A stretch of DNA of 37,737 nt, from the NCBI GenBank assembly GCA_045595265.1, contig JAZOAA010000023.1, forward strand, positions 1 to 37,737, written 5' to 3'. The DNA comes from Eubacteriales bacterium (GTDB lineage: Bacteria > Bacillota > Clostridia > Oscillospirales > CAG-272). The translations under genes were made by a program, and so were the position numbers. Positions 5,313 through 30,504 of this stretch are shown here, in pieces. Position 1 is the stretch's first letter. Each line of letters starts with the position of its first letter. The notes below the pieces were generated by a model, which was not told the DNA's origin, did not search any database, and worked only from the letters and a program-made list of their open reading frames with translations.

Positions 5313-7582
5313 TATTCGATTACCGTCATTTCTTCCTCACGCTTATACGTGCATCCCTTATTCTTGCACAAAACAAGCTTTCTGCTCTTTCGGTAATAAA
5401 GCATGGAAGAGCAATTCGGACAAAGCTCATTCAAGGGCATATCCCAGGTGGAAAAATCACACTCGGGATATTTTTCACAACTGTAAAAGAGCATCTTACC
5501 CTTTCCGTGACGTGCAACTACCATAGAATTACATTTCGGGCATTTAACACCGGTTTCGCTTATCTTCTGCTTGGTGAAAGTACATTCGGGATAATTGGAA
5601 CAAGCAAAAAATGCTCCGTATCTTCCCTTGCGTATCACCATATCACCACCGCAAACCTCACACTTAAAGCCTGCAAGCTCAACCGTTTCGGGCTTAGGCT
5701 CAGCTACGTTACCGTCCTTGTCAAGAGCTTTTGTATTTTTACATTTCGGATAGTTCGGACAAGCAAGGAATTTTCCGAATCTGCCTGTCTTATATACCAT
5801 TTTTTCGCCACATTTATCGCAAATAACGTCGCTCTGCTCGGGCTGAATAGAAAATTTATCATTTTTCTCTGCCGAAAGAGCGGTTTTCAAATCTGACTCG
5901 AATTTTTTATAAAAATCAGAAAGAACACCGACGGTAGTATTCTCTTTATTTTCTATCGAATCAAGCTTCGTTTCCATCGAAGCCGTGAACTCGTAGTCAA
6001 TAATATCAGGGAAATATTCACGCATAAAATTGGTTGTAGCCTCGCCCAAGGGAGTTGCTACCAGGAATTTTCCCTCGCGCTTTATATATTCACGAGAAAT
6101 GATGATAGAAATTATAGGAGCATAGGTAGAGGGACGTCCTATACCGTTTTCCTTAAAGAAATCTATAAGCGAAGCTTCTGTATAACGAAGAGGCGGCTCG
6201 GTAAAGTGCTGCTGTTTTTTTAGCTCGGTGAGTGAGAGAGTCTCCCCCTCTTTGACTCCGGGAAGCCTTCCGATGGAAAGCATATCCTCGTCGGAGCTAT
6301 CGTCCTCTTTTTCGTAAGCGTCATATATTGCCAAATATCCTCTAAACCTAACCGTCTGACCACCGGTCTTAAAGATATAACCGGAATTTTCAATGTCAAC
6401 CGACACGGTATCAAGCTCGCAGGATTCCATTTGACTTGCAATAAATCTATCCCAAATAAGCTTATATAATCTATACTGTTCGGAGGTCAGCATTTTCTTT
6501 ACACTTTTAGGTGTAAGAGCAGGAGTTGAAGGTCTTATAGCCTCGTGTGCATCCTGTGCATTAGCGGTCGTCTTGTAAGTTCTCTGCGCCTTCGGAAGAT
6601 ATTCACTACCGTAATTATCAACAATATATTCTGCCGCAGCTTGCTCGGCAACAGCGGAAACTCTTGTGGAATCTGTACGCATATACGTGATAAGACCCTG
6701 AACACCGCCCAGATCTTGTCCAAGATTAAGACCATCGTAAAGTTCTTGCGCAACCTTCATTGTCTTTTGCGACTGGAAACCTAACTTCTTTGACGCCTCC
6801 TGAAGCATAGAGGACGTAGTAAAGGGAGGAGCGGGAGATTTATGCTTGATAGCATGCTTCACAGAAAGAACCTTATACCGCCCCTTATCAAGAGCGCTTG
6901 CGATTTTTTCCGCATCGGTTTGCGAAGTGATCTTTATTTTCTTGACATTATCACCGAAAAATCTCGCGGGAATAGTTTCGCCGCGCTCGTTGCCAAGAGT
7001 TACCTCTATCGTCCAATATTCTTGCGGAACAAAAGCTCGTATTTCTTCCTCGCGCTCTGTGATAATACGAGTAGCAACAGACTGCACTCTTCCGCCTGAA
7101 AGTCCGCTTCTGAGATTTTTCCAAAGCACCTCGCTTAAATTAAAGCCCACAAGTCTATCCAGTATACGTCTTGCCTGCTGAGAATTAACGAGATCCTCGT
7201 TTATTTTCCTCGGTTTCTTTATAGCTTCTTTAACAGCGCCCTTGGTAATTTCGTTAAATGTTACACGACATTCCTTATCTCTCGGAATGCCAAGTTCATT
7301 GGCAATATGCCAGGAAATAGCCTCTCCCTCACGGTCGGGGTCGGTTGCAAGGAAAATCTTTGTTGCGGATTTTGCCTCTTTTTTCAACTCTTTTATAACG
7401 TCACCCTTACCGCGAATATTTATATAATGAGGCTCGAAATTGTTGTTAACATCAATGCCGAGCGTGCTTTTAGGTAAATCGCGTATATGCCCCTTTGATG
7501 CTATTACTTTATAATTTTGTCCAAGATAGCCCTTTATTGTATTAGCCTTTGCAGGCGACTCAACTATTACAAGATTTGCCAT
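5312..7582 (-). CDS. topA: DNA topoisomerase I
   Basis: 756 aa. TOPRIM N-terminus MANLVIVESPAKA...DPDREGEAI and several C-terminal CxxC...CxxC zinc ribbons. TAATG overlap with the trmFO start. Confidence 0.96.
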   Translation of the reverse strand: MANLVIVESPAKANTIKGYLGQNYKVIASKGHIRDLPKSTLGIDVNNNFEPHYINIRGKGDVIKELKKEAKSATKIFLATDPDREGEAISWHIANELGIPRDKECRVTFNEITKGAVKEAIKKPRKINEDLVNSQQARRILDRLVGFNLSEVLWKNLRSGLSGGRVQSVATRIITEREEEIRAFVPQEYWTIEVTLGNERGETIPARFFGDNVKKIKITSQTDAEKIASALDKGRYKVLSVKHAIKHKSPAPPFTTSSMLQEASKKLGFQSQKTMKVAQELYDGLNLGQDLGGVQGLITYMRTDSTRVSAVAEQAAAEYIVDNYGSEYLPKAQRTYKTTANAQDAHEAIRPSTPALTPKSVKKMLTSEQYRLYKLIWDRFIASQMESCELDTVSVDIENSGYIFKTGGQTVRFRGYLAIYDAYEKEDDSSDEDMLSIGRLPGVKEGETLSLTELKKQQHFTEPPLRYTEASLIDFFKENGIGRPSTYAPIISIIISREYIKREGKFLVATPLGEATTNFMREYFPDIIDYEFTASMETKLDSIENKENTTVGVLSDFYKKFESDLKTALSAEKNDKFSIQPEQSDVICDKCGEKMVYKTGRFGKFLACPNYPKCKNTKALDKDGNVAEPKPETVELAGFKCEVCGGDMVIRKGRYGAFFACSNYPECTFTKQKISETGVKCPKCNSMVVARHGKGKMLFYSCEKYPECDFSTWDMPLNELCPNCSSMLYYRKSRKLVLCKNKGCTYKREEEMTVIE

Positions 7583-7616
7583 ATATCAAAAGCGAGCTTG
7601 TCGCTTCCTTTCTCTG

Positions 7617-8906
7617 TTATTTTTTTCTCATCACGCGCTCCGCAGGGAGCATCACAACAAATCCGCCCATCTCTAATTTCAAGAGCGCCCTCATTACCTT
7701 TCTAAGATCCGTACTGTCATCGACAAGATCCTCAATGGCGCAATCACCCGTTAGCGGAATTTTTTTATAAAGTGAAATGGTCTGTTTATCAAACTCATCG
7801 TTTGTAGGCTCAACATACTCCTCTGTCTTCTTTTCATCAATAGGCACGACGAGCTTGCTTGTTGCAGAGATGTTGTTGCGCCGTGAGCGATTCTCTGATT
7901 TCTCTTTCGGCGCAGAGCCGCTCCTAAAAATATCATCATTCGGTGCTACCGCAATTACAGAATACCTTCTCAATGCATCCATGACGTTCACGGGACATTT
8001 TTCGGGAAGATTAAAGGGATTTATAACTCCGGGGTAAACGTCCTTAAAATCTCTTATAACGTCATCTGCGCAGGTAAAAAGCATTGCACCGTTTTTTATA
8101 AGCATATTCGTTGCTTGACTGTTCTTTTGATCAACGCTTCCCGGTAAAGCGTAAACGACCTTCCTCTGCTCTATCGCGTGACGCGCTGTTATCAAAGAAC
8201 CGCTGCGCTCCTTTCCCTCAACAACAAGTGTCGTAGCGGAAAGACCGCTTATCAATCTGTTTCTCTTCGGGAACGTCGTACGCGAGGGCTTGGTTCCGGG
8301 TGGAAATTCGGTTATAACACAGCCGCGCTTGACAATCTCCCTCGCAAGACGCAAATGCCCCTCAGGATAACAAACGTTTATGCCCGTACCGATAACCGCA
8401 ACCGTAATTCCGTCAGCCGCTAAAGCTCCCGCGTGAGATATTCCGTCTATTCCCATCGCCATGCCTGAAACTATTATCGAACCCGCGGAAGCAAGATCGT
8501 ATGCTACATTAAACGCTACGTTTCTTCCATAATCGGAAATAGAGCGAGTACCAACCATAGCAACGGCAAAATTCTTATTAAAATCGGGAAATGTTCCTCT
8601 GTAATACAAAAGAACGGGCGGTGTCGGTATCTCGCGCAAGGATTCGGGAAAATTCTCATCTGCATACGTTACTATGCCGACGTTGTTTTTTTCACAAAAT
8701 TCAAGTATTTTAGCGGCTTCGGTAAGATCCTTTTCCGCTAAGCGAGAACGGTCTGAAGAACGAGTACCTATATACTTTGATAACTCGTAAAGCTCAGCTT
8801 CATAAATTTCCTTAGCGCCCGCAAAATTTGAAATTAGTTTCTTGAAGACTCTGGAATCGGGAGTTACCGCTAAAGATAACCAGATCCAATATACGATATC
8901 TCTCAT
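7617..8906 (-). CDS. dprA: DNA processing/protecting protein DprA (Smf)
   Basis: 429 aa. Rossmann-like core VSGMAMGIDGISHAGAL...GSLITA typical of DprA; located upstream of topA. Confidence 0.88.
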   Translation of the reverse strand: MRDIVYWIWLSLAVTPDSRVFKKLISNFAGAKEIYEAELYELSKYIGTRSSDRSRLAEKDLTEAAKILEFCEKNNVGIVTYADENFPESLREIPTPPVLLYYRGTFPDFNKNFAVAMVGTRSISDYGRNVAFNVAYDLASAGSIIVSGMAMGIDGISHAGALAADGITVAVIGTGINVCYPEGHLRLAREIVKRGCVITEFPPGTKPSRTTFPKRNRLISGLSATTLVVEGKERSGSLITARHAIEQRKVVYALPGSVDQKNSQATNMLIKNGAMLFTCADDVIRDFKDVYPGVINPFNLPEKCPVNVMDALRRYSVIAVAPNDDIFRSGSAPKEKSENRSRRNNISATSKLVVPIDEKKTEEYVEPTNDEFDKQTISLYKKIPLTGDCAIEDLVDDSTDLRKVMRALLKLEMGGFVVMLPAERVMRKK

Positions 8907-24411: not shown

Positions 24412-25809
24412 TTATTTATTCTTCAAATGGTAATATGCTTTCATTTTTGTTTTTGCCTGTAAGCACTGTACATCAGAGCGTTTCAAATAACCGTTTTCAA
24501 GATACCCCATTCCCGGACAATAATTACAAAAGGCGCAGTAATCCTCTTTATAACATTCTTTGCAGTCTGCCAAAGTAACTTGATGCCATTTATAAAGACG
24601 GCTGGCTTTATCTTTTTCCATTGCGGCTTGCCATATATCTTCCATGGATTTTTCATTTAGGTTTCCAACAGAATACGGTAAAGATACGCAAATTACCACC
24701 TCTCCGTTAGGTGTAACAGTAAGCCCTGTATATCCGCCGAGACACGGTGTTGAGTCTGCTATGTTTGTTATATCAAGAGGCTTGAATTTTTCATCGAGAT
24801 ATAGTGGCGAGTTCGGATTAGTGTAAAGTTCGAACAACTCATCTTCTGAAAGGAGAAATTTCATCGTCTTTTTGTTACCTTCAATAGTGGGAATCAAAGA
24901 TATATCGGCAATTGAAGTTGCGCCTATTTCAGCAGCATATTCCTTAACTTTTATACAATCCATGCAATTGAAATTAAGCAAAAAGTTTTTGATTTGAACA
25001 TTCAAATTATCGCCTTTCATTTTGTCTATCAGCGAATATGTCTTTTTGAATGATCCCTCGATGTCTGTTACTCTGTCATGTGTTTTTTCATTTGTACTAT
25101 AAAGGCTTACGCAAATTCTATACGGAAATAACTCCTTTACTTCGGTATACAGTTTTTCGTTATCCGCAAAAACTTGACCGTTAGTAAATATTTCCACCGA
25201 AATGTGCTTACTTCTTGCATATTTTATAAGGTCTAAAAAGCGAGAATGAAGAGAAGATTCTCCGCCCGAAAAAGTTATACGAAAGCAACCCATTTCATAA
25301 GCATCGTCTATTGCTTTTTTACACATGTCGTAATCAATTTCCACATTGTTCATGTGCTTGGGATTGTAGCAATGTACGCATTTTAGGTTACAGCGATACG
25401 TAAGCTCAAAGAACAGCGAAAACATAAACTTGTTCTTAAAAAGCCATGTTTGCATTTGCTCGATAAATGAGGTTTCCTCCCCCGAGGTGGCGATATCGTC
25501 GCAAACCGGTGCATAGCTTGTACTTAACTGTTGTTCGCTTTTTTTGAAAACAATAAGGCCTTGTTCTGCGAGAGAATCAATAAAATCATAAACTTGCTCC
25601 GCTACTCCGTTTTTCTCAGCAAAATCAGCAAGTTCCTCGTCACAAACCCTATCATATAGCAGCTTCCATAAATCGCTGGATATGCCGTCTAACTGAATAT
25701 ATTCGTGGCTTTTTTCATTTGAAATGTAAGTTCTGCTTTCTTTTTTTCCGAAAAAATATGTATGACAGGAAATCCAGTTTGGTATGAAGATTTCATCTAC
25801 GCTTATCAT
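24412..25809 (-). CDS. Radical SAM/SPASM peptide-modifying enzyme with an N-terminal PqqD-like (RRE) domain
   Basis: 465 aa. About 100 N-terminal aa resemble a PqqD/RRE winged helix (YIQLDGISSDLWKLL...FIDSLAEQGLIVF). CNLKCVHC is the CxxxCxxC motif. The C-terminal Cys-rich region (CLGGYTG...TPNGEVVIC...CKECYKEDYCAFCNYCPG...C) is a twin auxiliary-cluster SPASM pattern. ATGA overlap with the upstream gene. Confidence 0.85.
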   Translation of the reverse strand: MISVDEIFIPNWISCHTYFFGKKESRTYISNEKSHEYIQLDGISSDLWKLLYDRVCDEELADFAEKNGVAEQVYDFIDSLAEQGLIVFKKSEQQLSTSYAPVCDDIATSGEETSFIEQMQTWLFKNKFMFSLFFELTYRCNLKCVHCYNPKHMNNVEIDYDMCKKAIDDAYEMGCFRITFSGGESSLHSRFLDLIKYARSKHISVEIFTNGQVFADNEKLYTEVKELFPYRICVSLYSTNEKTHDRVTDIEGSFKKTYSLIDKMKGDNLNVQIKNFLLNFNCMDCIKVKEYAAEIGATSIADISLIPTIEGNKKTMKFLLSEDELFELYTNPNSPLYLDEKFKPLDITNIADSTPCLGGYTGLTVTPNGEVVICVSLPYSVGNLNEKSMEDIWQAAMEKDKASRLYKWHQVTLADCKECYKEDYCAFCNYCPGMGYLENGYLKRSDVQCLQAKTKMKAYYHLKNK

Positions 25810-26708
25810 AATATAAATGCCTCTTTGTTTAATATTTTTTGTATACGAACGCTTTGGTTTATAAATTCCGGATTTATAACATTATATTCTTCAATAAAAG
25901 TATCATAAATGTCAAATAAATTATATTCTTTTAACAAAAGCGCTCTTAGCTGAAGACATATCTCTGCTCCGTATAGAACTTCTTTTTCCTTACGTTCGTT
26001 GGGAATCTGTGTTCCGTCGGTTCCGTCAAAAAGCATAATGTCAGGCGCTGTTAGCCACTCATAGTCAACTACTTCTGCCAGCATGGTTACGTTGCCGTAA
26101 TCAAGAGTGTCGTTTATAAAATGATTTTTGTGCAGTATTGCAACGCTTTTTGCCAGTTCCCTAGTGAATCTATTTGGATACTCGTCAACAGATATTCCCC
26201 AATAATCACAACAATATTTTATAACAGATTCTTTTTCGTTTTCGGTGAGATACATTAAATCTGCCACGCGAAAAGGGCACTTTAACTTTGTATAAATAAT
26301 ACACGGCGAAACTAATGCTCCGTTGCTGAATTTTATATTTTTAAGGAAATCATATTTTTTCGGCAACAGGAAATCAGATATTTTTTTATAATATAATACC
26401 TTTGGAAATCTATCTGAAATCTTTTCTATTTTGCGGCTTACTTCTAATTCTCTTATGGCAGAGGAGGATGGATACAAACCGAAAATTAACTCTTCGTCTT
26501 TGGTGGAAATATAAATTTGAGGACCGTTATAGTTCCAGCCACCTCCTTTTACGTTTATCCAGTTATAATCGCCTGCTTTTATCGCAACTGCTCTTCCATG
26601 AAAAGGAGAAACATGTGTGGCTTTTACATTTTCGTAGTTGATTTCGTCAGGAACAAAAATTCTTCCCAGCGTTTCGTCATTAAAAATTTTGAATTTTTCG
26701 AATTTCAT
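25806..26708 (-). CDS. Hypothetical protein, possible ATP-dependent (kinase-like) peptide-modifying enzyme
   Basis: 300 aa from ATG 26708 (AGGAAAA RBS); the track start at 26756 lies inside the upstream hairpin. No family recognised. Weak motif resemblance to the kinase fold: RAVAIKAG, RELEV, HFINDTLDYGNV (Brenner-like) and VVDYEW (IDFEY-like). Confidence 0.55.
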   Translation of the reverse strand: MKFEKFKIFNDETLGRIFVPDEINYENVKATHVSPFHGRAVAIKAGDYNWINVKGGGWNYNGPQIYISTKDEELIFGLYPSSSAIRELEVSRKIEKISDRFPKVLYYKKISDFLLPKKYDFLKNIKFSNGALVSPCIIYTKLKCPFRVADLMYLTENEKESVIKYCCDYWGISVDEYPNRFTRELAKSVAILHKNHFINDTLDYGNVTMLAEVVDYEWLTAPDIMLFDGTDGTQIPNERKEKEVLYGAEICLQLRALLLKEYNLFDIYDTFIEEYNVINPEFINQSVRIQKILNKEAFIL

Positions 26709-26729
26709 ATTTTTATTTTTCCTATATTC

Positions 26730-26775
26730 AAAAATGTAAATCCGCCAGATATGCAAAAACCTGCCTGGCGGATTT
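26730..26775 (-). terminator. Intercistronic hairpin / leaky terminator between the peptide gene and the enzyme genes
   Basis: Perfect 11-bp stem AAATCCGCCAG / CTGGCGGATTT (26765-26775 / 26738-26748) with a 16-nt loop. It is followed on the minus strand by ACATTTTTG. No U-tract on the plus strand. Confidence 0.6.
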
Positions 26776-26798
26776 ATGTTAGCATTATGCCGGCAATA

Positions 26799-26900
26799 TT
26801 AGCCCATTTTTGCACGAATACCGCAAGAATGGTCAGTCATCTTACCGCAACCGGACATACTAGCAACGTGCTGTGCAGCCTTCTTTGTAATCTTAAGCAT
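26799..26900 (-). CDS. 33-aa putative RiPP precursor peptide MLKITKKAAQHVASMSGCGKMTDHSCGIRAKMG
   Basis: Hand-translated. ATG 26900 lies 7 nt after AGGAGG; TAA at 26799-26801. It is first in an operon with a radical SAM/SPASM-RRE enzyme and has its own consensus promoter. Below the 60-aa ORF-track cutoff. Confidence 0.65.
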   Translation of the reverse strand: MLKITKKAAQHVASMSGCGKMTDHSCGIRAKMG

Positions 26901-26926
26901 TTGATAATCCTCCTTTTTTGATTTTT

Positions 26927-26943
26927 GAGTTATATTTTAACTC
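26927..26943. promoter_or_regulatory. Palindrome GAGTTA-n5-TAACTC (candidate operator) in the peptide-gene 5' UTR
   Basis: Perfect 6+6 inverted repeat between the -10 element and the RBS of the peptide gene. It shares the AGTTA/TAACT half-site with the repeat at 26967-26994. Confidence 0.45.
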
Positions 26944-27042: not shown

Positions 27043-27315
27043 ATGAATGTTGGTAAGAAAATACGCGATGCAAGAGAAGATATGGATTTATCGCAGCGCG
27101 ATATGGCAAATCTTATTCCCATGAATCAGTCCAATTATTCTAAAATAGAACGTGACATTCAGGAACCTAATATGGACCAGCTCCGCAGGATTTGTCAGAT
27201 ACTCAATATTGATCCCCGATATTTGTTAAATCTGGGGGAGTACTCTTCTGTAACAGATGCTGATATTACTTTGCTCAAGGATATAAAGCGTTTTATAAAA
27301 GAACATAATGTATAA
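27043..27315 (+). CDS. XRE/Cro-C1-family HTH transcriptional regulator
   Basis: 90 aa. IRDAREDMDLSQRDMANLIPMNQSNYSKIERDIQEPNMDQL is a canonical HTH_3 pattern. Divergent from the peptide operon. Confidence 0.85.
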   Translation: MNVGKKIRDAREDMDLSQRDMANLIPMNQSNYSKIERDIQEPNMDQLRRICQILNIDPRYLLNLGEYSSVTDADITLLKDIKRFIKEHNV

Positions 27316-28262: not shown

Positions 28263-28338
28263 TGGAGCTGATGAGGGGACTTGAACCCCTGACCTGTTGA
28301 TTACGAATCAACTGCTCTACCAACTGAGCCACATCAGC
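28263..28338 (-). tRNA. tRNA-Thr (anticodon CGU), CCA encoded
   Basis: GCTGATGTGGCTCAGTTGGTAGAGCAGTTGATTCGTAATCAACAGGTCAGGGGTTCAAGTCCCCTCATCAGCTCCA folds by hand into a full cloverleaf: 7-bp acceptor, GCTC/GAGC D stem, GTTGA/TCAAC anticodon stem with loop TTCGTAA, and AGGGG/CCCCT T stem with a TTCAAGT loop. Confidence 0.93.
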
Positions 28339-29296: not shown

Positions 29297-30016
29297 TTAA
29301 AAGGTATCAATAATATCGCAGATAATTTTAACGTCCTTATGTCCGTGAGGGTGATGCTTACGCTCAGGATCAATAAACACGGAGATTTCTCCGCCGTATT
29401 TATTGTAATATCTTTCAAGATTTTCACCGTTTTCCGAATAAGGAACAACCTCGTCGGAGCCTCCCGCTACAAGAACTATCGGAATCTTGTGCTCCAATAA
29501 CACGTTCATCTTATCAATCGGATTATCTCTGTAAGACAGCATTTCGCTGATTGTTCGACCTGTTACCGAATAATATTCATCGTACAAAGACACCTCACTC
29601 TTTCCAAGAGCGCATGGACAACTCAAAAGATTCATTACGGGAGCATCCAGGTACATGCCTCTGACAAGCTCGGGATAAAGTGCTGCGAGCTTCACTGCAT
29701 AAAGTCCACCGCAGCTCATACCAATAAGCACACATCGCTTATCCAGCCCGAATTTTTCGGAAACAAACTTCACAAATTCGCCCTTTGTTTTCAAATCAGA
29801 CTCCTCTGCCCAGCGGTTTTCATTCTCGTTGTATGCGATGTGGTATCCCCTTTTAAGAAGCTCAAGCTCTGTTTCGGGAAAGTGACCAAAATATTCTGTT
29901 TTTAATGCCCATTTGCCGTTTGAAGCTGTATCGGGCTTGACTAATTTAGCACTCCGCCCCATAAACGAAAATTCAAGACATTCATAGCCATGAAAAACAG
30001 TAGTTTGAAAATTCAT
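29297..30016 (-). CDS. Alpha/beta-fold hydrolase (esterase-like)
   Basis: 239 aa. GMSCGG nucleophile elbow (GxSxG), GGSDEVV acid and a C-terminal HHPHGH. ATGA overlap with the upstream ORF. Confidence 0.72.
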   Translation of the reverse strand: MNFQTTVFHGYECLEFSFMGRSAKLVKPDTASNGKWALKTEYFGHFPETELELLKRGYHIAYNENENRWAEESDLKTKGEFVKFVSEKFGLDKRCVLIGMSCGGLYAVKLAALYPELVRGMYLDAPVMNLLSCPCALGKSEVSLYDEYYSVTGRTISEMLSYRDNPIDKMNVLLEHKIPIVLVAGGSDEVVPYSENGENLERYYNKYGGEISVFIDPERKHHPHGHKDVKIICDIIDTF

Positions 30017-30504
30017 ATTCTTGACTCCCTGTTTTCAATTTCTGATTTATACGTAATTTTCAATGCGCGGAATATATACCGTTTTATAATCGGTTGCTTT
30101 GAAAACTCATTCTTGAACATTATAAGGTCAAATAAAACCAGAAAAATCGCCGTCAAAGGAATACCACCCACGATAATTGCCTGGCATATTATAATAGCCA
30201 ACCAAGCCAAAATAATCGTGTGATAAATCGGTGCTGTTAATATAAGACCGCGAAGGGCTGTAGTATTATTTTTTTGAGTAAGAGTACCTATAAAATAAGT
30301 ACCTTCAAGAAACGCATTATCTTTAGTAGGAAGCTCGGTCATCTCGCACTTGATCTTCAAGAGCTTTCCTTTTGATTTTATATGCATTTTAGGCTTTCCT
30401 TTAGATGTATCGTAGGCTTCTTCTGCTACTACGCGGTCATTATCTTTGATATTGAAAAGCACCTTATCCTTATCAGAATCAATGGTATAATTAACTAAAA
30501 GCAT
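30013..30504 (-). CDS. Hypothetical membrane protein (N-terminal soluble domain plus 2 TM helices)
   Basis: 163 aa. Hydrophobic stretches APIYHTIILAWLAIIICQAIIV and GIPLTAIFLVLFDLIMF. Starts 3 nt after the mutS2 stop. No family recognised. Confidence 0.55.
   Translation of the reverse strand: MLLVNYTIDSDKDKVLFNIKDNDRVVAEEAYDTSKGKPKMHIKSKGKLLKIKCEMTELPTKDNAFLEGTYFIGTLTQKNNTTALRGLILTAPIYHTIILAWLAIIICQAIIVGGIPLTAIFLVLFDLIMFKNEFSKQPIIKRYIFRALKITYKSEIENRESRI

Follow-up and report, generated by a model that had tools for sequence, protein, structure and literature searches.

A conserved 33-codon gene as the probable precursor gene of a radical SAM-dependent RiPP in gut Clostridia

Among peptides synthesized ribosomally and then modified post-translationally (RiPPs), the described systems closest to the one reported here are the SCIFF peptides and ranthipeptides, namely, CteA-CteB (thermocellin), PapA-PapB (freyrasin) and QhpC-QhpD. 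We analyzed a stretch of 37,737 nucleotides from an Eubacteriales bacterium (assembly GCA_045595265.1, contig JAZOAA010000023.1; hereafter, the window), and in particular an open reading frame (ORF) of 33 codons at positions 26799..26900 of the minus strand, which precedes the genes for a 300-aa kinase-fold protein and a radical S-adenosylmethionine (SAM) enzyme. We consider it likely that this ORF is the translated and selected precursor gene of an undescribed radical SAM-dependent RiPP of uncultured gut Clostridia. The locus resembles the SCIFF/ranthipeptide systems in that it is found in Clostridia, encodes a short Cys-containing precursor together with one maturase that combines a RiPP recognition element (RRE), a radical SAM domain and a SPASM domain, and is devoid of a dedicated exporter or protease; CteB is also the top structural neighbor of the maturase. 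An auxiliary cluster of CteB binds a substrate Cys at an open site (PMC8172795), and the substrates of the freyrasin and QhpD systems carry Cys-Asp/Glu links of the ranthipeptide type (PMC8172795), the Cys-Asp/Glu thioethers formed by PapB being described in PMC9413430. The peptide of the window likewise has an acidic residue near a Cys, comparable with the Cys-X3-Asp motifs of PapA (PMC8172795 and PMC9413430). However, SCIFF precursors contain about six Cys in about 45 aa, whereas the present peptide has two Cys in 33 aa and a different leader, and its spacing is C-X4-(D/E)-X2-C rather than the C-X3-D of ranthipeptides, with an extra SelO-like enzyme in the locus. No SCIFF precursor or SCIFF-maturase model of NCBIfam reaches its cutoff here, no NCBIfam model matches the peptide and no maturase equivalog reaches its cutoff, in agreement with the original prediction, made from the letters of the window, that the peptide is not a SCIFF member.

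Sactipeptide systems (SkfA-SkfB, subtilosin/AlbA and the StsB type) are the second group of relatives. They share with our locus the RRE and Cys residues as candidate thioether donors, and SkfB is the best sequence match of the radical SAM enzyme in the PDB (9.5e-11). However, this enzyme lies far below the AlbA and StsB equivalog cutoffs (72 versus a cutoff of 850 and 67 versus 625, respectively), the core has too few residues to form the usual hairpin, in which the Cys are N-terminal and the acceptors C-terminal, and there are no transporter or immunity genes. What the locus does have are the generic features of an RRE-dependent radical SAM/SPASM RiPP, i.e., an adjacent, co-oriented and conserved ORF, a leader and a core under selection, and an enzyme with the CX3CX2C motif, SPASM domain and RRE.

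A kinase-fold enzyme encoded beside a precursor is known from the kinase domains of class III/IV lanthipeptide synthetases and from the phosphotransferases of class V lanthipeptides and kintamdin; the kinase-fold enzyme of the kintamdin system acts on the precursor next to it (PMC9415263). Those enzymes phosphorylate conserved Ser/Thr residues for elimination and work with a lyase or cyclase, whereas our locus has no lyase, the core has no conserved Ser/Thr, and the fold is nearest to SelO. SelO lacks the Asp of the HRD motif, binds ATP in a flipped orientation and transfers AMP (PMC8097203). The 300-aa protein is similar to SelO/YdiU (PF02696) in its kinase-like fold, in the motifs KG(G/A)G, (I)RE, R and N-x8-D-Y, and in having no HRD Asp. 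On the other hand, SelO proteins are about 480 aa long with a C-terminal domain and modify folded proteins, whereas the present protein has 300 aa without such a domain, gives no PF02696 match, has Thr in place of one of the two Arg residues that contact the gamma-phosphate (R170 in E. coli), and is encoded within a peptide-maturation operon. A precedent for a ribosomal peptide with a covalently attached nucleotide is offered by the microcin C type (MccA/MccB). There, MccB is an E1/ThiF-like adenylyltransferase that acts on the C-terminal Asn of a heptapeptide precursor, and no radical SAM enzyme takes part.

The small gene, its conservation and its putative maturase

Read directly from the minus strand, the ORF at 26799..26900 runs from ATG to TAA, exactly as the original prediction gave it, and encodes the peptide MLKITKKAAQHVASMSGCGKMTDHSCGIRAKMG, with a leader of about residues 1-15 (MLKITKKAAQHVASM) and a core of about residues 16-33 (SGCGKMTDHSCGIRAKMG). 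A 33-codon ORF is by itself not above chance, since the 10 kb around the gene contain 123 ORFs of 25 aa or more; the test must therefore be conservation. We gathered 30 related loci via the 300-aa kinase-like protein and via the radical SAM enzyme, and in all 30 of them an ORF of 31-36 aa with an AGGAG-type ribosome-binding site (RBS) lies directly upstream of the enzyme genes. These ORFs encode 22 distinct peptide sequences with four core types. Across 21 aligned peptides of the four types, the only invariant residues are M1, L2, C18 and C26; I4 and G27 are nearly invariant, and position 5 is always Ser or Thr.

Among 17 distinct 33-codon homologs, the mean proportion of nonsynonymous differences (pN) is 0.30 versus a mean proportion of synonymous differences (pS) of 0.75, the latter being saturated. 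L2, I4, C18, C26 and G27 are each kept through two to four synonymous codons, and the entropies at codon positions 1, 2 and 3 are 0.71, 0.73 and 1.34 bits, respectively, so that the third position is about twice as variable as the other two. As the ORF is kept in all 30 related loci and carries this coding signature, it stands beyond chance, and on this evidence from aligned sequences it is a real, conserved and selected small gene. Hence, neither of the two outcomes that were to speak against the original prediction, namely, the lack of a conserved small ORF at the related loci and the lack of coding constraint, was observed, and its view of the ORF as a precursor type tied to the neighboring radical SAM enzyme holds. 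Several of the peptides have already been predicted by gene callers and are named by no source, and searches with five peptide variants against Pfam and NCBIfam returned nothing meaningful.

Type A, to which the peptide of the window belongs, has the pattern MLKI[T/S]K...(S/Q/A)GCG[K/R]xxDxxCG[I/R]xx[K/R]xG, always ending in Gly, and type B (MLKISRIAKHTVISMGKCPEHREGVCGVMYRMS; loci L011 and L012, in a mobile-element context) is likewise accompanied by the kinase-like gene. This gene is absent from the cassettes of type C (MLKISRIARHTTQITCGCSHYHEFNCGILYRTT; L027) and type D (L023-26 and L028-30). The type D peptide at L023:4821-7708 is MLKISKIVKHTIVQMAGCAKAPKSTACPDIMSKYVS and that at L028:3785-8405 is MLRISKIARHNVVQMGACAKQPWNSGCPDVLAKRC. 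Every kinase-linked peptide has C18, an acidic side chain at position 23 (type A, Asp; type B, Glu), the C26-G27 pair and, at position 31, a basic residue; Asp/Glu at position 23 is invariant through types A-C and absent in type D. By comparison, position 16 reads S/Q/A/G, position 22 T/S/F/N/R and position 25 S/D/M/Q/L/E/V/N. The leader MLKI[S/T]K... is common to peptides across radical SAM subfamilies with differing cores, which bears out the earlier view of the N-terminal half as a leader, and the central place given to both Cys is justified as well, C18 and C26 being the only invariant residues of the core. The two-Cys pseudo-repeat that had been seen in the core survives in part: a C-G pair at both Cys and a basic residue after each are retained, but the flanking Ser residues and the K-M pairs are not conserved.

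The radical SAM gene (24412..25809, minus strand), whose start overlaps the stop of the kinase-like gene by 4 nt, encodes a 465-aa radical SAM/SPASM enzyme with a predicted N-terminal, PqqD-like RRE. Its Pfam matches are Radical_SAM (3e-17), SPASM (1e-9) and PqqD (1.3e-4), the last one at 22.6 bits and thus just below the cutoff of 23.4. In a 45-member family alignment, the cysteines of the CX3CX2C motif (C140/C144/C147), the C282/C285 pair and seven SPASM cysteines (C356, C374, C419, C425, C428, C431 and C449) are invariant, and the first 85 residues are highly conserved. In the AlphaFold2 model (predicted local distance difference test score, pLDDT, 91.7), residues 13-82 adopt the beta-beta-beta-alpha-alpha-alpha order of the RRE topology, and a Foldseek search with this model returned CteB on top (1e-15), then SuiB and SkfB, all of them RRE-containing RiPP maturases. 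The leader is common to all subfamilies, and conservation is just as high in the N-terminal domain of the enzyme, a pattern that fits the recognition of the leader by the RRE. The enzyme reaches no equivalog cutoff of NCBIfam; the nearest models, AhbD, NirJ2, MftC, HxsC, PqqE, AlbA, StsB and SkfB, all score far below theirs, with those of AlbA and StsB aligning over nearly its full length.

The SelO-like protein

The 300-aa protein is encoded at 25806..26708 on the minus strand, between the peptide and radical SAM genes. It has no family in Pfam (no match at E ≤ 1) or NCBIfam, and belongs to a tight family of 92 clusters, all about 300 aa long and at least 46% identical, which come from metagenome-assembled genomes of Clostridia and from gut metagenomes, and are labelled 'hypothetical' or unnamed. 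An exhaustive search with a hidden Markov model among 1.84 billion proteins found just 136 representative clusters (50% identity), of which the distant members have no Pfam family either.

The AlphaFold2 model of the protein has a pLDDT of 87.4 and a predicted template-modeling (TM) score of 0.88. When it was compared with the PDB using Foldseek, the first nine matches were YdiU/SelO structures (E = 7e-6 to 9e-5, TM score about 0.5), followed by Abl, PDK1 and PRPK, so that the fold is protein-kinase-like. In an alignment of 60 sequences reaching down to 16% identity, K54, G55, G57, G77 and N206 are invariant, and H37, R39, R86, R147, D150, T208, E212, D215 and E217 are conserved in 90% or more of the sequences. 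Searching the PDB by sequence with a narrow profile of the family returned nothing, and a broad profile gave only sub-threshold matches, to kinase catalytic loops and to SelO; in these alignments N206 takes the place of the catalytic-loop Asn, and the position of the HRD Asp is occupied by T201, not by Asp. Profile-profile alignment using hhalign gave P = 2.3e-4 and a probability of 44% against E. coli SelO, and P = 1.6e-4 and a probability of 50% over 160 columns against a small SelO alignment, compared with P = 0.18 over 36 columns for an unrelated control alignment.

The pairs aligned with E. coli SelO are K54/K107, R86-E87/R129-E130, R147/R177, N206/N247 and D215/D256. According to the list of SelO catalytic residues taken from PMC8097203 (a Lys, a Glu, two Arg, an Asn and the DFG-type Asp), five of the six are aligned (K54, E87, R147, N206 and D215), the sixth, E. 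coli R170, being replaced by T140; with an offset of six residues, E. coli K107, E130, R177 and D256 correspond to Lys113, Glu136, Arg183 and Asp262 of P. syringae SelO. As judged from the model and these alignments, the protein is SelO-like in fold and active site. Since it has no Pfam hit, 300 instead of 478 aa and no C-terminal domain, and since the hhalign probabilities are 44-50%, we call it SelO-like and do not assign it to PF02696. By analogy of fold it is a putative nucleotidyl- or phospho-transferase that would tailor the peptide.

Cassettes consisting of a helix-turn-helix (HTH) gene, the peptide gene and a radical SAM gene of about 50% identity, without the kinase-like gene, are present in L023-26, L027 and L028-30, and in a small tree their radical SAM enzymes group with the kinase-linked enzymes of type B. 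As these sister subfamilies keep the leader and the two Cys without it, the kinase-like gene is accessory; from this distribution, peptide and radical SAM enzyme form the core of the system, to which the kinase-like protein appears to be a tailoring add-on. The mobile-element copy L011:5587-9303 has an 84-aa ORF (5754-6008) followed by two kinase-like paralogs (6001-6915 and 6942-7904). The second of them is without D215 and E217 (IISYKC versus VVDYEW) and is probably non-catalytic, as it has lost the DFG-type Asp and the following Glu. An extra ORF of 84-86 aa is common to L011 and L027, the homolog in the latter lying at L027:4703-4963, where no kinase-like gene is found.

We found no Pfam or NCBIfam model and no paper for the peptide or the kinase-like protein. 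A literature search of incomplete coverage returned no report in which a radical SAM RiPP is connected with a kinase-fold enzyme, SelO-like or other, nor any with the leaders MLKITK, MLKISK or MLKISR; large atlases may list the radical SAM enzyme without describing it. The cassette probably represents a new radical SAM RiPP family whose distinctive feature is its unmodeled SelO-like partner. It defines a small-gene family missed or left unnamed by annotation in human, bovine and other gut Clostridia, and a protein family of about 136 clusters for which there is no existing model, and it ties a SelO-like kinase-fold enzyme to peptide maturation. With three genes and a 33-aa substrate, the system is compact enough to be a potential small model for SelO-type chemistry and for a possible new RiPP modification.

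Expression signals and regulation

A Shine-Dalgarno sequence AGGAGG is located at 26914-26909 on the minus strand; the original prediction placed it 7 nt from the ATG, and the motif is indeed there, but direct reading gives a spacer of 8 nt (ATTATCAA). In every homolog of the peptide gene, (A)AGGAG(G) precedes the ATG by 6-9 nt. Further upstream, a sigma-70 promoter, TTGACA-17 nt-TATAAT, at 26981-26953 of the same strand matches the consensus in 12 of 12 positions, is the top-scoring site in a scan of 4.5 kb, and is predicted to drive the peptide operon; comparable promoters are legible in L001, L021, L012, L027 and L023. Neither this promoter nor the hairpin after the stop codon, described below, had been noted in the original prediction. 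On the opposite strand, a 134-aa ORF at 26517..26921 (plus) shadows, in codon register, the peptide gene and the beginning of the kinase-like gene. It had already been called spurious, and we agree, since 14 of 17 homologs also have this codon-aligned antisense frame open over the peptide, which is the usual shadow of a real coding frame; for the same reason, filters based on ORF length will go on calling it.

A divergent gene at 27043..27315 (plus strand) encodes a 90-aa XRE/Cro-type HTH regulator (Pfam HTH_3, 2e-11; HTH_19, 3e-11), and a divergent HTH gene occupies the same place in L001, L012, L015-17, L021 and L027. An operator-like palindrome, GAGTTA-N5-TAACTC (26927..26943), is situated after the -10 box and ahead of the RBS of the peptide gene; it has one match in the window versus 0.02 expected. 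The same palindrome occurs at L001:5775-5791 and a related one in L021, and unrelated palindromes take the same position elsewhere. These palindromes are probably operators of the divergent XRE protein. A single operator motif for all loci was rejected, as GAGTTA..TAACTC is found only in the window and L001.

Directly following the stop of the peptide ORF, and before the enzyme genes, a terminator-like hairpin with a 13-bp stem and a U-run spans 26727..26776 on the minus strand. Its minimum free energy is -27.1 kcal/mol (z = -3.5), and none of 200 shuffled sequences folds as well. A GC-rich hairpin with a U-run is present in all nine loci with a spacer of at least 47 nt, the sequences being unrelated to one another; examples are those of the window, L001, L008, L011, L012, L021, L023 and L027. 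In the remaining 11 of the 20 loci, the peptide ORF reaches the next gene or extends into it, by up to 38 nt. Peptide and enzymes are coupled in one of two ways, by a hairpin or by gene overlap, and the hairpin is probably a partial terminator that would raise peptide mRNA over enzyme mRNA.

Proposed maturation, competing explanations and genomic context

If the ORF is a RiPP precursor gene as we propose, the leader would dock on the RRE of the radical SAM enzyme, and the thiols of the two Cys would be the reactive groups. By analogy with CteB and SkfB, C18 and C26 may act as thioether donors, most likely in intramolecular thioethers of the sactipeptide or ranthipeptide type, in which the Cys sulfur is bound to an alpha-carbon or to a beta- or gamma-carbon, respectively. 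Should such thioethers form, Asp/Glu23, given its constancy in kinase-linked peptides, is a plausible candidate for the acceptor, through its beta- or gamma-carbon as in the PapB and QhpD substrates. Thr22, which the original prediction named alongside Asp23 as a possible acceptor, is not a reasonable one, because position 22 varies. The SelO-like enzyme would modify the peptide, linear or already cross-linked, with a nucleotide monophosphate or a phosphate. The earlier suggestion that the Ser/Thr residues are its candidate substrates is not supported either: Ser16, Thr22 and Ser25 all vary, and we rejected core Ser/Thr as substrates since none is conserved; the enzyme itself turned out to be SelO-like and absent from the sister cassettes. 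The ratio of peptide to enzymes would be set by the hairpin after the ORF or, in other genomes, by translational coupling, and the XRE protein would repress the promoter through the palindrome.

Several observations weigh against this proposal. The SelO relationship rests on a fold match with a TM score of about 0.5 and on hhalign probabilities of 44-50%, and the sister cassettes have no kinase-like gene, among them L027 with its type B-like core. At no core position is a Ser, Thr, Tyr or His fixed that would mark an acceptor of the SelO type. Between the two Cys, cores of type D (CAKxPxxxxCPD) lack an acidic residue; a Cys-Asp/Glu linkage is therefore not general for the family, and we rejected it as a family-wide rule. 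Finally, there is no recognizable cleavage site in the 33-aa peptide, and no protease, exporter or immunity gene is conserved across the related loci.

With neither an exporter nor a protease linked to the cassette, the product may have an intracellular role or rely on general machinery, a possibility already proposed for SCIFF peptides. An explanation in this direction is that the product is an intracellular cofactor-like or signaling peptide, comparable with PQQ, mycofactocin and SCIFF, rather than a secreted antimicrobial, which we hold to be somewhat unlikely. It would account for the absence of conserved exporter, protease and immunity genes, and it fits the tight regulation of the cassette by the XRE protein as well as the genomic neighborhood. 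The flanks of the window are of the housekeeping type, with rsmA, a LysM-CAP protein, an alpha/beta hydrolase, glycerol kinase (glpK), an AraC regulator, mutS2 and recO, no exporter or dedicated protease being among them, and housekeeping neighbors are also found in L020 and L021. However, L011, L012 and L022 are flanked by mobile elements (integrase, relaxase or resolvase), which is more typical of accessory or competitive traits, and no partner oxidoreductase is linked to the cassette. A role as a signal or an antimicrobial would give the product relevance for the microbial ecology of the gut.

A non-thioether reaction is likewise unlikely: the ORF would still be a RiPP precursor gene, and the radical SAM enzyme would catalyze epimerization, C-C cross-linking or a Cys oxidation of the formylglycine or thiooxazole type, with the two Cys serving only as cluster ligands, docking points or a disulfide. 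RRE-SPASM enzymes of near-equal similarity to ours catalyze many reactions, as illustrated by the similar NCBIfam scores for AhbD, MftC, PqqE, HxsC, AlbA, StsB and SbtM (none at its cutoff) and by the presence of EpeE, an epimerase, and SuiB, which forms a Lys-Trp cross-link, among the fold neighbors found by Foldseek. However, the two Cys are the only invariant residues of the core, and both CteB, the best structural neighbor, and SkfB, the best PDB sequence neighbor, are Cys-thioether synthases.

A more specific version of the proposed maturation, which we regard as distinctly unlikely, is that the product is a new peptide-nucleotide conjugate, in which the radical SAM enzyme cross-links the two-Cys core and a minimal, hitherto unrecognized branch of the SelO pseudokinases then AMPylates or UMPylates it, the acceptor perhaps being the carboxylate of Asp/Glu23 or a Cys, not a hydroxyl. 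Kinase-fold enzymes such as SidJ can adenylate carboxylates, which makes Asp/Glu23 a candidate acceptor; to regard it as the target of the kinase-like protein is speculation by analogy. If this were the case, the protein would be the first SelO-like enzyme with a ribosomal peptide as its dedicated substrate, and the product the first nucleotidylated radical SAM RiPP.

Very improbable, in our view, is a toxin-antitoxin or anti-phage module in which a SelO-like toxin nucleotidylates cell proteins under the control of the peptide and the radical SAM enzyme. In its favor, such systems often have XRE regulators, generic similarity to pVip is seen in the radical SAM core, and several loci have neighbors of the mobile-element or defence-island type. 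These comprise WYL/AAA-type neighborhoods and, in the flanks of L012, L018, L022 and L028, resolvase, relaxase/MobC, DUF3987, Toprim, WYL/WCX and AAA-Peptidase_M41 proteins. However, PADLOC gave no match for the kinase-like protein, and the match of the radical SAM enzyme to pVip (63 bits) is no better than that of any radical SAM core. Moreover, the enzyme has RRE and SPASM domains as in peptide maturases, the sister cassettes do without the kinase-like gene, and no relative was found in the phage, plasmid and IMG/VR collections. Hardly credible, lastly, is a chance ORF or a cis-regulatory upstream ORF encoding an attenuation leader peptide: ORFs of this size are abundant by chance and the one in the window is followed by a terminator-like hairpin, but purifying selection acts on the amino-acid sequence, in which specific Cys are invariant, there is no regulatory codon run and no alternative pairing that overlaps the ORF, and we rejected the attenuator because the hairpin is missing in the 11 of 20 loci where the ORF abuts or overlaps the next gene and because the peptide sequence is constrained.

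The cassette of the window is made up of the divergent XRE regulator, the peptide, the 300-aa kinase-fold protein and the RRE-radical SAM-SPASM enzyme. As the flanking genes differ in every locus and these four parts are kept together, the cassette is a conserved unit. Next to the radical SAM gene, L023 and L028 both have a gene for a WG_beta_rep (PF14903) protein, which may be another accessory or a target. Rfam returned no RNA family at the peptide locus; its sole match in the window is a tRNA (RF00005, 74.5 bits) at 28266-28338 on the minus strand, between rsmA and the LysM-CAP gene. Outside the cassette, a 163-aa ORF at 30013-30504 (minus strand) with a hydrophobic C-terminal half and no Pfam family overlaps the stop of the gene downstream of mutS2.

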